DNA of 64,000 nucleotides from an uncultured Acidobacteriota bacterium. Lineage in GTDB: Bacteria; Acidobacteriota; UBA6911. Each line of letters begins with the position of its first letter. The stretch's first letter is position 1. The notes beneath the pieces were generated by a model, which did not search any database, was not told the DNA's origin, and worked only from the letters and a program-made list of their open reading frames with translations. The translations under genes were made by a program, and so were the position numbers. This document shows positions 3,616 to 10,866 of the stretch, in pieces. Location of the stretch: contig CAWHCF010000022.1 of the NCBI GenBank assembly GCA_963827655.1, forward strand, positions 288,001 through 352,000, given 5' to 3'.

Positions 3616-3827
3616 GATTGACGATTTACAAGATTGACGATTGACGATTGACGATTGACGATTTACCAATAAGGATTCGCGGCAGGTCAGGTATGAACAA
3701 TCGTCAATCGTCAATCCGTCGGTCAATCGTCAATTCGTCGGTTAATCGTTAATGGCTAATCGTCGATCGGCAATCGTAAATCGTCAATCGTCGGCCAATC
3801 GTCAATCGTCAATCGTCAATCGTCAAT
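3616..3827. repeat. Inverted heptamer array (GATTGAC)n ... (AATCGTC)n
   Basis: About 7 units on the left arm (3616-3666); long degenerate complementary arm (3698-3827) that runs into the next ORF. Confidence 0.9.
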
Positions 3828-5623
3828 CCCTGGTCGTGGCCCTCGTCGCGGCGCTCCTGTACCTCCCGGCCTTGTCCTACGATTTCACTTTCGACGACGG
3901 GACGATCGTGGCGAGAAACCCGGCGGTTCAGGACTGGGGGAACTGGAAGCTCATTTTCTTCTCGGATTACTGGCCCGAGGCACACTCGGCCCTGTATCGC
4001 CCCGTGACGATTTTTTCCTTCGCGCTGGAGAGACTGCTCCATGGCGCCGCCCCGTCCGGTTTTCATTTGACCAACCTTTTCCTTCACTCGGCGGTTTCCG
4101 CCATGGTCTTCCTGCTGGCCACACGGCTGATGGGAACGACCTGGGGCGCTGCGCTGGCGGGCATTCTCTTCGCGGTTCACCCTGTGCATTGCGAAGCGGT
4201 AAGCGGCGTTGTCGGGCGCGCCGAATTACTCTCGTCCCTGTTGGGCCTTGGAGCTTTTTGGATCTGGGCCGGCGACCCGGATTCGGATCGGTCTTCCGGG
4301 CCACGCCCAGCCTTGCTGAAAGGAATGTTACTGTATCTCCTCGCGCTGGGAGCCAAGGAGAATGTGATCATTCTCCCGGGAGTTCTTTTTCTCTGGGAGA
4401 TTGCGCGCGCGCGCGCCGGAGCAGTAGGGGCGCAAATCCGTCAGGTGGTTCGAAGCCCCAGGCTCTGGGGACTCATCGCTGTGACGCTGGGGTTCCTGGC
4501 GATACGAAGCATGGCGTTGGGGGGGATTCAGGCCTCGCTGAGTCCTGCGCCGTCATTCGTTGAGAACCCGCTGGTACGCGAGCCTGCAGCGGCCCGCATC
4601 CTGAGCGCTCTCTCCAACCAATGGCATGCGCTGGTCCTCCACGTAATACCTCGTCCCTTGATTGCCGACTACTCCTTCGACACTTTGCCCGTAGTTCATA
4701 GCTGGATGAATCTCAAAGCCGCTGCCATGCTGCTGTTCGCCATAGGCTCCCTGGCGCTCTGGGGAATGAGACACCGGATGGCGGCTGTTCTGACCCTGGT
4801 CCCTTCCTGGTATCTACTGGCCGTCTTGCCCACGAGCAACATCCCCTTGGCGATTGGAACCGTCTTTGCCGAACGTCTGCTTTACTTCCCGTCGGTTGCG
4901 TTCTGTATTGGAGTAGGGGCGCTTGCTTCAGCCGCCTTGGGACGGGAAGCCGCGATGTGGAAGATACCGGTTTCTCGCGCGGGCAAGGCGATCCTGGGTT
5001 GTTCTCTGCTTGTCGTCCTCGCGTTTTCGGTGCTGACGCTCGCGCGTAATCCTGTCTGGAAGAACGACCTGGCGCTGTTCACAGACACGGTGGACAAAGC
5101 CCCCCGCAATGTCAAAGCCCGCTTGTGGCTCGGAGACTCTCTGGTGCGGTCTGGAGATCTGAGCGCCGCGATCAGTCAGTACCGCGCGGCCCTGGAAATC
5201 TATCCCGACTACGCGCCCGCGGCCGCCAACCTTGTCGTTCCATTGAAGGGTCTGGGAAGGCTGCAGGAAGCGATCGACACTGGCGAACGAGCGCGTGCGT
5301 TATTCGGAAATGAGAATGCCGGACTGCTTTATAACCTGGCACTCACCTACCTCGAGGCCGGCGAGCCGGTGCCCTTTCTCGACTACATGGGACGGGTTGT
5401 AAGACTTGAGCCAAACAACAGCAGGGCTCACCTGCGGCTTGGGCTGTACTATTTCCAGCGCGGAGCCGACCGCGCCGCTGCCCGAGCGCACCTCGAGCAG
5501 GCGCTGCGATCGAACCCTTCGGCCGAGGATGCCGCCGCGATCAAGAACTTACTGGCGAGAATCAGTTCTTCCCCGCTAGTGTCTGCAAAGATGGTGGGCG
5601 CGCTTTTGCCTCGCGCCCTGTAA
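3752..5623 (+). CDS. TMTC-like GT-C membrane glycosyltransferase with C-terminal TPR repeats
   Basis: FTFDD, YRPVT, HPVHCEAV..VVGRAEL, AKE, DYSF, AERLLYFPS motifs, many TM segments, TPRs after RNPVWKNDLALF; start uncertain because it lies in the repeat. Confidence 0.85.
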   Translation: MANRRSAIVNRQSSANRQSSIVNRQSLVVALVAALLYLPALSYDFTFDDGTIVARNPAVQDWGNWKLIFFSDYWPEAHSALYRPVTIFSFALERLLHGAAPSGFHLTNLFLHSAVSAMVFLLATRLMGTTWGAALAGILFAVHPVHCEAVSGVVGRAELLSSLLGLGAFWIWAGDPDSDRSSGPRPALLKGMLLYLLALGAKENVIILPGVLFLWEIARARAGAVGAQIRQVVRSPRLWGLIAVTLGFLAIRSMALGGIQASLSPAPSFVENPLVREPAAARILSALSNQWHALVLHVIPRPLIADYSFDTLPVVHSWMNLKAAAMLLFAIGSLALWGMRHRMAAVLTLVPSWYLLAVLPTSNIPLAIGTVFAERLLYFPSVAFCIGVGALASAALGREAAMWKIPVSRAGKAILGCSLLVVLAFSVLTLARNPVWKNDLALFTDTVDKAPRNVKARLWLGDSLVRSGDLSAAISQYRAALEIYPDYAPAAANLVVPLKGLGRLQEAIDTGERARALFGNENAGLLYNLALTYLEAGEPVPFLDYMGRVVRLEPNNSRAHLRLGLYYFQRGADRAAARAHLEQALRSNPSAEDAAAIKNLLARISSSPLVSAKMVGALLPRAL

Positions 5624-6018
5624 GAAGGTGCGACAGAAATTGATGCCGTGGCGCGGGTCATCAGCGAAACTGTCGCAAACTGCCCCCGGTTATGTACGGA
5701 CGGGCAATCAGAGCCACGTCCGGCTCCCGAGGGCCCTACTGGACTTTTAAGCGTTAAGGCGCCGCGACTACATAACTTGCTGACGGGCCAATGCGCCCGT
5801 CGCCACAGGGTGCTTGGACATAGTCGCCGTCAAAGCCGCTCGCGGCGTCGCGGCTGCAGCTTGCCATCAGGTCGGCTAATTATCCTCGCCCCTCACAGGG
5901 CTAAAGGGTCTGCCGGACCGATCAAGATGCCGTCGCTGAAGGTTCACAGCTTCTAAGGCCGGGATTAATTACCTCGTGTTGAGCGCTGAAGGCGCTGCAC
6001 ATGTTAATAGCCATCGTG

Positions 6019-9000
6019 TTACGCGGCGACTGCGGTTGCCCTCACACTCGCAAGCACCGCCACCAACTCGTCAACCTGCGAAGAACTGAAAAGCCCGTCA
6101 GGTCCCCGCGGCGTGAGATCCGTGAACGGCGACTCGTAAAGCAGCGCGGCCTCCATCACGCCGTGCTCGGTCAAGTGGTTCACGATCAGGTTCACGAACT
6201 CGATCTGGTTCGCGCCGAGCGTCTTCCCTGCCAGGAACCCTGCCAGCGCCCCTTTGGCCGCCTCGCGATCCATCCCCACCAGAGATCGAACGAACAAGCC
6301 TAGCCCCTGCGACTCCGTTCTTGCGCGGTTGACGTACTCGGCCGCCCCGACGCCGCTCTGCGACGAGCATTCGCTCCAGTTCGGCCAGATCGGCCGCAGT
6401 GAGCGGCCTGGTTCATCCGCAGCTTGTGGATCGTGACGTGATCCTGGTGCGCGCGCAAAAATGCCTGCGCCTTCGCGCGGAACTTCGCGTAGTCCGTGCC
6501 TTCCGCGAAGCCGGGCAGCGCAAAGTCGGTTTCGCCGCCCATCACATCCTCAAAATCGGTGTAGATGGGTTTGCGCTTCTGCTTTTCGATCAACTTCACG
6601 AGATCCCGCAGGCGCCGCCGGACACTCTCGAGCATCGGGATGGTCACGTCCTGCCACCACTCGTCCGTCTGCACCTCCTGGATGAGCGCCATCTGCTCAC
6701 GCACCATCGGAATGGCCGACTTCTCCTCGAGCAGACCGGCGATTTCCTTGACCTGATCCCGCAGACGCTCGAAGCCCGGTTCTGAGCGAAGACGCGCGAG
6801 CTGCAGGTTGAGAAGGAGCAGATCGAAGCGTTTCGCCTCTTCGGCCTCAGCCTCTAGTTCCGACGGCAAACCCGCGACCTCGTGCGACAGCTCCGACAAG
6901 GCCTCGGCAGAGAGCGCCGTCCACGCTTTCGAGCGTGGAGTACTTCTCCACGACGCGGCGATGCGGCCGGACCACGAAGTTGTCGAGGTTCATCGCCGCC
7001 ACTTCCCTGTGCAGCAGCTCGCCGATCGCGTGCCGGACTTCCGCGTCGGTCTTCGGCTCGCCGTAGGCAGTGATTTCAGGCTGCTTCACGCTCTCACCGG
7101 CGCCATGCTTGTCCAACTCGCCGATCAGCTCCAATCGTGCCGTGAACAGCCGCTTGCCCAGCGACTCTGCCGGCGCACCTTCGGTCGCCTCGGGGTTCTG
7201 GCTGAAGTACTCCAGGTTCTGGCAGTAGTCGAAGAGGTAGAAGAACGGCTTGTGCTGCCCGGGCCCGAACAGGTCGGGGCAGAGGCGCGTGCCTCGGCCA
7301 ACCATCTGCCAGAACTTGGTCTTCGAGCGCACCAGCTTGAAGAAGACCAGGTTCACGACTTCCGGGATGTCGATGCCGGTATCGAGCATGTCCACTGAAA
7401 TTGCGATGTGCGGCGCCTTGTCCTTGTTCGAGAAGTTGTCGATCAGGCTTTGCGCGTACTCGGTCTTGAAGGTGATGACGCGCGCGAACTCACCTTTGTA
7501 ATGCGGATAGTTCGCGTTGAAGCGCTCGGCGATGAACTCCGCATGGGCCTGGTTCTTGGCGAAGACGATGGTCTTTCCCAGGCGGTCGCCCCCTGCGACC
7601 TTCATGCCGCGCGTCATCAGGTGCTCGAGCACCTTGTCGACCGTGTCCTTGTTGAAGAGCCACTTGTTGACGGCTTCGGCCTCGACCCGGTCGGGCACAC
7701 CGCCGTCCTCGTCCCACTCGAGCGCATCCCACTGGTCCTTGTCGTCTTCCGACAGGTCGTCGTACTTGATCCCCTCGCGCTGGAACTTGAGCGGCACCGA
7801 GACGGCCTTCGGCGGCACGAGAAAGCCGTCTCTCACTGCTTCTTCGAGCGAGTAGGCGTCGGTCGGCACGCCGTTTTCGAGATCGAACAGGCCGTAGGTA
7901 TTGCGGTCCACCTCGTCCTTGGGTGTGGCGGTGAGCCCGACCAGCAGCGAATCGAAGTAGTCGAAGATGGCGCGGTACTTCTGGAATACCGAGCGGTGCG
8001 CCTCGTCAATGATCACCAGATCGAAGTGGCCGGCGCCGAAGCGGCGCTGGCCCTGCCGCGTCTCGTCGATCAGCCCCATCATCGTCGGATAGGTCGAGAC
8101 GAAGACGCGCCCCTCGGCGTCCTTCTCGGTGACCAGATTCACCGGCGCCGCGTCGGGCAGATGCCGCTTGAACGCATTCACCGCCTGGTTGACGAGCGCC
8201 ACGCGGTCCGCCAGAAACAGCACCCGCTTCACCCAGTTGCAGCGCATCAGCAGATCGCAGAGCGCGATCACCGTGCGGGTCTTGCCCGCGCCGGTGGCCA
8301 TCACCAGGAGCGCCTTGCGGTCGTGATCGCGCTCGAAGGCCTCGGCGATGCGGCGAATGCCGCGCGTCTGGTAGAACCGCTCGACGATGGCCGGGTTGAC
8401 CTCGGCGGCGGCCAGAGACTTCCGGCTGCTGCGCCGCTGGATGACGAGCTCCAGCTCCGCCTTCTTGTAGAAGCCCTGCACCCGGCGCGGCGGATAAGAC
8501 GCGTCGTCCCACAGCCAGTGCTCGTAGCCGTTCGAGTAGAAGATCAGCGGGCGCCGGCCGAACTGCCGCTCCAGGCAGTCGGCATAGAGCTTGGCCTGCT
8601 GCTGCCCCACGCGCGGGTCGCGGCGGGTGCGCTTGGCTTCGACCAGGCCCAGGGGCTTGCCGTCGTCGCCCCAGAGCACGTAGTCCACAAAACCCTTGCC
8701 TTCCCGGTTGGGCATGCCGGCGACTTCGAACTCCCGGTCGCGGGCCTGGTCCAGCGGCCAGCCGGCTTCTTTCAACAGCAGGTCGATGAAGAAGTCGCGC
8801 GTCTCGGTTTCCGCATAATCGTGGGTATCGGGCTGCGCCGCGGCGGCCTTTTTCGCCTCGGCCACTTCGGCGCGCAGGCGCTTCAGCTCCTCATCGAGCG
8901 TCGACCTGTCGGCCAGGAGCGCCGCGAGTTTCTCGTCGCGTTCGCGCAGCGCGGTCTCGAGCCGCTGCAGCTGTTCGGCGGTCTGCTTCGGCGCCGGCGC

Positions 9001-9429
9001 AGCCTTCGGCAGCGCGCTCGCGTCGAAGACCAGCCCGGGCGCCGGGCGCACCGCGCGGCCGTAGGTGCGAGCCAGCCAGTACGTCACATGGAACAGCTCG
9101 CGCACGGCAACCAGCGCGTCGTCCGCCGGGATCGCGCGGTGGCTGTGGACGGCGCGGTTGCCGAGCGTGTTGACCACCCGCGCCTTGCTGAAGACGGCCT
9201 CCCCCGCCGTCTGCTTGAAGCTCGGCTCGTGGATCAGCGCGCTCAGATTGTCCTGGTACGGCAGCTTCAGCGCCGCGTCGTGCTTGTAGGCCCACGCCAC
9301 AGCCAGCTCGAGCGCGCGCCGGGCGTAGAAGCAGGCCGTGCGCGGGTCGGCGTGAACCGCCGCCTCGGCCTTGCCGGCGGCCTCGAACACGTCCGGCCAT
9401 TCGCGCTGGAGGAAGGCGAAGTGGGTCAT
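6019..9429 (-). CDS. hsdR: Type I restriction enzyme subunit R (DUF4145 N-terminus, EcoEI-R-like C-terminus); frameshifts near 6920 and 6300-6410
   Basis: VDYVLW...VEAKR nuclease motif, MATGAGKT Walker [30 protein letters not shown]-terminal LYESPFTD. Confidence 0.92.
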
Positions 9430-9514
9430 TGGCTCCGCTCCGCCATGTCGCAAGTTTGTCGCAAGTTATGTCGCAGGTCTGTCATCGCGTGTCACAGCTT
9501 GTCACAGCTCCGTG

Positions 9515-9658
9515 TCACAGCCTGTCATAGCTTCCCGGGCAATTCACCCACTCGTCCGAGAGCGTCGCCGCCTCCAGAAACCCTCGCGCCCGCTCGATGG
9601 CCGTCAGGCCGGCGGTGATTGTGTTGGTGATGGTGAAGCGGGGAGCGAAGGAGACCAC
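9515..9658 (-). pseudogene. Fic-family protein remnant (N-terminus only)
   Basis: GTG start just after the hsdS stop; [37 protein letters not shown] resembles Fic N-termini; no HPFxxGNGR motif; followed by tgtcacag/gtcgcaag repeats. Confidence 0.55.
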
Positions 9659-9660
9659 GG

Positions 9661-10866
9661 CTACAGCTCCCCGCGGAAGGCGCGATGCTGGAGCGAGGCG
9701 AAGAGCGCGTCGAGTTCGGCGAGCGAGGCGCGGTGGGTGGCTTTGAGTTTCTCGACGGCGGCGACGCGGCGAGCGAAGTCGTGCTGGAGCTCGACGGTGG
9801 GCAGCGGAATCGGCATCCTTCGAAATCGCCCTGGTCAAGTTCGACGCGCTGCGCCGTCGTACTGTAGTCTCGAGCATCTCGCTCTGACAGCGGCAATGTC
9901 GCAGAACAGCATCGAAGAAACATCGGTCGACGCATTGCTCCAGCGGTCGCAGCCGCAATGATGCGTCGTGTTGAGTAGCAATGCGGCAATGCTCGTCAGG
10001 CACATCGCGCGATCGTCCGCAGGTCGCCAGTCCTTCGCGACGAGCACGTCGCCGCATCGACGCGTAGTGCGTCGTAACGTCTGCGTCGTACTTCGTCGGC
10101 GATGAATGCCGTTCGGTGTCGTCGACGAAACTCGTCCGTCGACGATGTTCATCGACGTTCGATAAGCCTGATGCGCTTCGTCGCGAATTGCTGCGGCTCG
10201 CTCGGCACCTTCCTGAATGAGCTCGCACACGTTCGCCAACGTCTCGACGATTGGCCATCCCTTCGGATTCGTGGCGGGGTCGCCGAACATGTCGAGGAAG
10301 ATGGATTGGGTGAGGGTGTCGAGTTGGGCGAGGGCGGCGCGGCGCTTGGCCCGCAGCGCCTCCGCCCGGTCCAGCACCTCCGCAATCCGCCGCTGCTCGG
10401 GGAGGGGCGGGAGCGGGATCTCGACTCCGTGCGCCATGTCGTCTGGAACGTCGCTTGAACAGTTGCGCCCGTCGCCTGCATGCGCACTGTCGGCGTGAAT
10501 CTGAGCGCATGAGAAGTGGAGCAAGTAGTCGCCATCCAGGTTCGTCGGCAGTCGCGGACGCATGCATGCTCGATGGCTGCAACCATACGCCGACGTCGAT
10601 CAGCCGATGATACGTCGCGCACGTTCGTTGCGACAGGCACTGCGATTGCAGAAAGGACGTCTGCCGGCAGCAATACGTCTGGACTCGCACTGACTTCGCT
10701 GCATCGGAGTCGACCCACGATCCTTCGACGTCTGGACCTCCGGAGCTCGCAGGCTCGATGCTGACAGATCGAGTGGCCGTTCGCGTGCGTCGCAACTCGA
10801 CGGAGCTCCACCGTTGATCGACGCTTCACGCAAGCTCGCCGAGTGGCAATCGAGCCAGCGACTCAT
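9661..10866 (-). CDS. hsdS: Type I R-M specificity subunit; both TRDs unreadable or scrambled
   Basis: ATG overlaps the hsdM TGA; clean central region [41 protein letters not shown] and clean end [36 protein letters not shown]. Confidence 0.88.

Follow-up and report, generated by a model that had tools for sequence, protein, structure and literature searches.

Target-recognition domains of a Type I hsdS gene that probably represent a consensus over different alleles

In this work we have analysed an hsdS gene in a 64,000-nucleotide stretch of DNA, referred to below as the window (G000:C22:288001-352000), which belongs to a genome assembly of 8.18 Mb in 53 contigs that is 90% complete. The text that fills the two target-recognition domains (TRDs) of this gene is most probably a consensus over reads whose TRDs could not be aligned with each other, and is neither a real allele nor the remains of a decayed gene. 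The gene itself probably varies in the sampled community. What is seen at this locus is likely to reflect the assembly and not the gene, and it is unlikely that any cell carries the TRD text; we would annotate the hsdS neither as a pseudogene nor as a new kind of hsdS.

The hsdS gene, its operon and the assembly

A Type I restriction-modification operon with the order hsdM-hsdS-hsdR lies on the minus strand of the window. Its features are as follows.

10863..12401, minus strand: hsdM, an intact open reading frame of 512 aa (Pfam N6_Mtase 5.1e-61, HsdM_N 2.4e-17)
9661..10866, minus strand: interrupted hsdS frame of 402 codons, counting the stop (three-frame translations)
10426..10866, minus strand: TRD1, scrambled, consensus-like text of 441 nt (composition, ghost in frame 2)
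10600..10602, minus strand: in-frame TGA within TRD1 (stop mapping in frame 1)
10246..10425, minus strand: central conserved helix region, clean, frame 1 (identity to relative G008, periodicity)
9829..10245, minus strand: TRD2, scrambled, consensus-like text of 417 nt (composition, ghost in frame 3)
9835..9837, minus strand: in-frame TGA at the end of TRD2 (stop mapping in frame 1)
9664..9828, minus strand: C-terminal conserved helix, clean, frame 1 (identity to G008, periodicity)
9454..9660, no strand: hsdS-hsdR spacer of 207 bp with short direct repeats (repeat search)
6847..9453, minus strand: first piece of hsdR, an open reading frame of 868 aa (Pfam DUF4145, HSDR_N, ResIII, Helicase_C)
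6022..6935, minus strand: two further pieces of hsdR in other frames, 6935-6405 and 6363-6022 (tblastn with G008 HsdR)

hsdS is located between hsdM and hsdR, and its ATG overlaps the hsdM stop codon. The first-pass annotation had placed the gene at 9661-10866, with a normal total length of about 400 codons and with clean conserved segments next to a clean hsdM, and each part of this description was borne out. The 402 codons compare with 396 in the relative G008 and 402 in the relative G055. They do not form one uninterrupted frame, since there are two in-frame TGA codons, one for each TRD, and frame changes inside both TRDs. The two conserved helices, on the other hand, are homologous to those in the HsdS proteins of G008 and G055, and both are read in frame 1. 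The central helix shows strong codon periodicity and is 93% identical in nucleotide sequence to G008 over 10253-10399, while the C-terminal helix is likewise periodic, with a GC content by codon position of 0.75/0.43/0.89, and is 85% identical over 9590-9726. Throughout the helices, hsdM and hsdR, the GC content of the richest codon position was 0.88-0.95 and that of the poorest 0.39-0.44. The two above-cut-off matches to the TRD profile Methylase_S (PF01420) that an HsdS protein may show were absent: the profile matched nothing but the helix that follows TRD1, and with 18.3-18.5 bits this match stays below the cut-off of 22 bits; the TRD text translated in frame 1 had no Methylase_S match in Pfam.

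The genes on both sides of hsdS can be read against G008. The intact hsdM has a GC3 of 0.95 and is 87% identical in nucleotide sequence to its counterpart there. The first piece of hsdR has 84% amino acid identity to residues 4-844 of the G008 HsdR, which is an intact protein of 1144 aa, and a tblastn search matched residues 841-1017 and 1031-1144 of that protein to the two pieces in shifted frames. Compared with G008, hsdR therefore contains two frameshifts, one-base indels near 6936 and 6406, a point on which the first-pass annotation was silent. Its shifted C-terminal third takes in the stretch with homology to the EcoEI_R_C end of the G008 protein. The spacer between hsdS and hsdR contains three copies of a 22-nt repeat at 9478-9532 with similar 9-nt words just ahead of them, the whole spanning 9445-9532. 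At the position of the spacer G008 has a gene of 390 aa with AAA_14/DUF4143, and the homology to G008 runs beyond the hsdS stop to 9590. The repeats are possibly the scar of a deletion, or another collapsed spot.

The operon as a whole (6022-12401) is compositionally foreign to its host: its neighbours, a TPR/TMTC-like gene (3752-5623) and an aminotransferase gene (13887-15206), have a GC3 of 0.69-0.73, compared to 0.88-0.95 in the operon. Relatives of the HsdM of the window, with a protein identity of 85-93%, were found in records labelled Verrucomicrobiae, Burkholderiales, Acidobacteria, Chloroflexota, Nitrospira, cyanobacteria and Methanosarcina; the operon family is very mobile and has spread across phyla.

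How far can a broken frame in this assembly be trusted? We looked at two essential genes, rpoB and rpoC, and both were broken (G000:C8:77634-86281): rpoB is split into 1161 and 392 aa and rpoC into 573 and 828 aa, by one frameshift each, which amounts to about one indel per 4 kb there. Since living cells cannot have rpoB and rpoC both broken, the assembly carries indel errors. It is an error-prone consensus, with an indel rate typical of uncorrected long-read consensus, and the two polymerase genes are a sign of this that is independent of hsdS. Nanopore consensus is reported to carry indels which cause frameshifts (PMC9262707). With frameshifts even in rpoB and rpoC, genes that appear broken elsewhere in this genome need to be checked before they are given a biological reading.

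Composition of the TRD text and its distribution in the genome

The first-pass annotation had called both TRDs rich in CG and TCGA, broken in frame and still marked by ghosts of TRD motifs, and our measurements agree. The GC content by codon position is flat in both (0.59/0.63/0.62 in TRD1 and 0.61/0.61/0.57 in TRD2), and codon periodicity falls to 0.03 and 0.06, respectively. The motifs GDVLVAK and GAARR can still be read in frame 1 and GATVQ in frame 2, and the opening of TRD2, about 15 codons, is still plausible in frame 1. In a blastx comparison with the 107 intact HsdS proteins of the family, frame 2 of TRD1 resembled one TRD family, and frame 3 accounted for most of the resemblance of TRD2 to another, the GDVL portion of the same motif being read in frame 1. 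When the DNA of the TRDs was aligned to the nearest alleles, 60-80 small gaps were needed compared to 9-42 in pairs of real alleles, which is weak evidence given that the alignment was gap-lenient.

The ratio of observed to expected CpG was about 1.45 in TRD1 and 1.78-1.86 in TRD2. The words CGTCG and CGACG together occurred 23 times per kb in TRD1 and 38-42 times per kb in TRD2, against 5 in the window, and TCGA occurred 21-26 times per kb in the TRDs against 8. Beneath this enrichment lies a shortage of neighbouring identical letters. The fraction of same-letter dinucleotides was 0.141 in TRD1 and 0.132 in TRD2, whereas real alleles of similar GC content (61 of TRD1 and 40 of TRD2) had 0.235±0.02 and a minimum of 0.183; runs of at least three identical letters occurred about 7 times per kb (6.8 in TRD1), compared to 36-39 per kb in the real alleles, whose minimum was 20. 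The excess of CG, TCGA and CGTCG arises because C and G are the commonest letters while CC and GG are avoided.

We scanned the genome for this depletion, using a same-letter fraction of at most 0.145 in windows of 420 bp. Only 42 of the 407,771 scan windows were that depleted; 8 of them lie in the hsdS described above, the remaining 34 lie at C29:20.2-21.8 kb, and none was found elsewhere. The depletion of the TRDs is thus far beyond chance, as all 42 depleted windows fall in two hsdS genes: the second site is the hsdS of another Type I operon, which belongs to an unrelated family. Its layout is the same, with a scrambled TRD1, a periodic central helix, a scrambled TRD2 and a periodic C-terminal helix. 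The Methylase_S profile misses this gene. In the operon around it (G000:C29:18735-25000; L175 3736-10035), hsdM is divided into 2 open reading frames and the domains of hsdR are spread across 4 overlapping ones. The frameshifts in rpoB and rpoC mean that these interruptions, like those in the hsdR of the window, are not evidence of decay. A partial integrase fragment is present just upstream of the second operon, at C29:17770-17919.

A looser test, which combined a same-letter fraction below 0.17 with a periodicity below 0.12 in windows of 300 bp, gave 26 matches, 19 of which were in the two hsdS genes. Beyond these genes G000:C26:273051-273450 was the sole site with more than one window (3) low in both measures. 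Other regions with a low same-letter fraction, on contigs C34, C43, C35 and C46, were rejected, as they are periodic and represent ordinary coding DNA. The density of CGTCG and CGACG was dropped as a genome-wide detector, being confounded by GC content and mostly flagging C22:1-28,500. This end of the contig (G000:C22:1-28500) has 68-81% GC compared to 59% in the genome, with patchy codon periodicity, and may be a foreign island or a chimeric join.

Averaging of alleles as a source of the text

A text averaged over many alleles should be moderately similar to all of them and closely similar to none. We aligned all TRDs against all, in a set of 110 sequences made up of 109 real alleles and the window. 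Both TRDs of the window ranked 1 of 110 by median score, with 0.0249 for TRD1 and 0.0242 for TRD2, and the best real alleles reached 0.0178 and 0.0150. By the score of their nearest relative, the same two TRDs ranked just 96 and 85 of 110. No real allele is thus as close to the average allele as these two TRDs are, and neither of the two has a close relative, a combination which has the look of an average over many alleles. Resamples from composition-matched Markov models scored 0.0157±0.0016 for TRD1 and 0.0144±0.0018 for TRD2; the window lies 5-6 SD above them, and composition therefore does not explain its rank.

We also simulated such averaging in a toy model, in which repeated pileup voting was applied to mixtures of 6-71 real alleles with or without read noise. 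Periodicity always dropped in the resulting consensus, to 0.02-0.19 from a mean of 0.21. Homopolymer depletion appeared under only one of four scoring schemes, the gap-lenient one (+2/-3/-1), which gave a same-letter fraction of 0.12-0.17 and a CpG ratio of 1.34-1.38, and under this scheme the consensus was shortened to 346-374 nt compared to the 417-441 nt observed. Minimap2-like, edit-distance, Racon-like and near-LCS scoring produced no homopolymer depletion, the same-letter fraction being 0.20-0.25 where it was measured, a range it also kept to under stiff gap penalties, and no scheme of the model reached the observed density of CGTCG and CGACG (7-13 per kb compared to 23-38 per kb). In simulation, then, an indel-tolerant consensus of unalignable alleles can yield the signature, although the toy model reproduces it incompletely.

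According to the reading we prefer, the reads at this locus would have agreed in hsdM, in both helices of hsdS and in hsdR, and would have differed in the TRDs beyond the possibility of alignment. Repeated polishing tolerant of indels would then have averaged the TRDs into a centroid-like string of normal length, in which one or two allele families could still be made out faintly. Such averaging would destroy frame and periodicity and collapse runs of identical letters, and would leave behind a text rich in CG, TCGA and CGTCG. Both the heterogeneity of the reads and the role of the assembler or polisher as the source of the text are what we infer from the assembled sequence, rather than from the reads.

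The proposal of the first-pass annotation that the TRDs are a consensus over many alleles is supported indirectly, by the signature, the second hsdS on C29, the similarity to an average allele, the frameshifts and the toy model. Its further suggestion, specificity switching at the level of the population, did not gain support. Where could the mixed reads have come from? HsdM proteins are 85-93% identical across phyla and the composition of the operon is foreign, and the reads could therefore belong to other species, collapsed onto hsdM and hsdR. Their source could be a set of strains within one species, or else other species which share the mobile operon. That a single species population is so polymorphic in the TRDs of both its Type I systems that no allele holds a majority seems to us a rather doubtful possibility. 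If it were true, it would amount to a shufflon distributed across cells, supplied through recombination at the conserved helices of hsdS from a pool of TRDs shared across phyla, and neither local silent cassettes nor an invertase would be needed.

Some measurements on HsdM and on sequencing runs belong here as well. A single private residue was counted in the HsdM of the window (rank 15 of 137), the median being 3 and the range 0-7 in the 56 sequences with comparable nearest neighbours, and this HsdM ranks 4 of 137 by its match to the plurality residue, a rank which is biased by the choice of the sequence set. In a sequencing-run index no run contained at least half of the sampled words of the window; 20 runs from 14 studies had fractions of 0.08-0.12, which do not count as evidence.

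Alternative readings, known systems and related loci

The strongest rival to a consensus over alleles is an artefact without any allelic diversity: coverage may have dropped at the locus, a misjoin may have occurred or the polisher may have erred, and the cells would carry one normal hsdS. The assembly is demonstrably error-prone in rpoB and rpoC, and our simulation fell short of the observed motif density, both of which fit such a process. However, such a fault would not explain why the signature is limited to four TRDs of two unrelated hsdS genes in 8.18 Mb and ends at the borders of the helices, when the TRDs are the sole parts expected to differ between alleles. The TRD text also has a position-specific similarity to real alleles that goes beyond composition, and we regard this explanation as unlikely.

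Could the gene instead be truly decayed, a pseudogene in a dying restriction-modification system with TRDs mutated past recognition? The in-frame stops and frame changes in hsdS and the two frameshifts in hsdR are what one would expect to see in that case, but frameshifts are no evidence of decay in an assembly in which rpoB and rpoC have them as well. Neutral decay cannot erase the periodicity of the TRDs and yet spare in-frame helices which are still 93% and 85% identical to those of a relative, and the identical pattern is present at the second locus on C29. A loss of same-letter neighbours is not what any mutational process known to us would cause, and this too counts against decay, which we consider very improbable.

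Equally improbable, in our opinion, is a local phase-variable shufflon, in which hsdS recombines with silent cassettes left unresolved by the assembly. Invertible hsdS cassettes are found in the pneumococcal system SpnD39III and in the hsd systems of Mycoplasma. A phase-variable Type I system is also reported in Bacteroides fragilis (PMC7641763), and all of these would give mixed specificities at one locus; mixed orientations, too, would confuse a consensus. At the locus in the window, in contrast to these systems, silent hsdS copies, an adjacent recombinase and long inverted repeats are all absent. A search of the genome with Methylase_S gave 1 match, the locus of the window itself, and the hsdS DNA matched only itself across the genome, the hsdS on C29 being part of a separate operon and contig. 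Contig C22 is free of tyrosine and serine recombinases, as the 20 Phage_integrase and 9 Resolvase matches of the genome are all on other contigs. The longest pair of inverted repeats within 6000-12500 was 33 nt long with 73% complementarity, and there was no excess of self-complementarity. A mixture of forward and inverted reads was rejected, because the score of the text against its own reverse complement was only about 1 SD above composition-matched Markov controls. The first-pass annotation had seen no silent hsdS copy and no invertase in the window and had concluded that this was not a classical local shufflon, which holds for the searches made here; with the genome 90% complete, silent cassettes may have stayed unassembled.

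We also considered a target of a diversity-generating retroelement, and rejected it since such elements change a gene while keeping its reading frame, the frames here are broken and no template copy of the hsdS DNA is present in the genome; the closest RVT_1 gene lies some 105 kb from hsdS (G000:C22:192008-192574, 1.1e-34).

It is already well known that TRDs are diverse on a conserved hsdS framework, and in ordinary Type I systems, for example in Helicobacter and Staphylococcus, TRDs are swapped between strains. The locus in the window shares with them the order hsdM-hsdS-hsdR, the two variable TRDs and the two conserved helices, and the relatives studied here carry unrelated TRDs on a near-identical framework. 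It differs from them in giving no readable functional HsdS, and the diversity that we propose is deduced from a damaged consensus, not from discrete alleles. The closest parallel to the reading as a consensus over alleles is therefore to be sought among assemblies. In the Strainberry paper (PMC8302730), Flye is described as merging related strains into consensus contigs, a related species included. The merged contig described there matches no single strain and has indels and frameshifts where strains differ, features which it has in common with our locus. Here the merged parts would be unalignable TRD families rather than variants at the SNV level, and the outcome is a frame-less text poor in homopolymers and no mosaic of SNVs. 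A non-exhaustive search of the literature gave no description of such a signature.

Because the signature singled out just the TRDs of two hsdS genes in 8.18 Mb, it could serve as a flag. Flat codon periodicity together with a same-letter fraction below about 0.15 would be a cheap way of recognizing collapsed hypervariable loci, and perhaps of marking those where a strain-resolved re-analysis of reads would recover the real specificity alleles.

How usual, finally, are broken hsdS genes in this family? We surveyed 160 loci encoding HsdM relatives, 80 from metagenomes and 80 from genomes, which together with the loci of kin genomes made 174. In 112 of these, hsdM was followed on one strand by the two helices in order, first the central and then the C-terminal one, and these were kept; the others were left out on account of a contig end, genes between hsdM and hsdS or an operon on the other strand. 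The hsdS was uninterrupted in 107 of the 112 related loci, and the remaining 5 had stops or insertions in TRD1 (four) or a frame change (one). At 47 loci hsdS was not detectable right after hsdM; 8 of these had enough downstream DNA, and in those of the 8 that were read other genes were inserted, and no scrambled text was seen. Within the 1.5-kb flanks of 28 N6_Mtase loci from 28 relatives, the same-letter fraction never fell below 0.195, and other metagenome-assembled genomes consisting of few contigs had an intact hsdS. Since hsdS is intact elsewhere, the effect belongs to particular assemblies and is no general one. A further case is the locus L095, which has the closest HsdM in the genome collection (90%) and comes from another metagenome-assembled genome, presumably the product of a long-read project. 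Its hsdS (5033-6100), which is shorter at about 340 codons, is scrambled too, with remnants of the helices between text that has stops in all frames; the signature is less pronounced there, the same-letter fraction being 0.17-0.21. Intact hsdS genes are present at four other loci which seem to stem from a project similar to that of L095.
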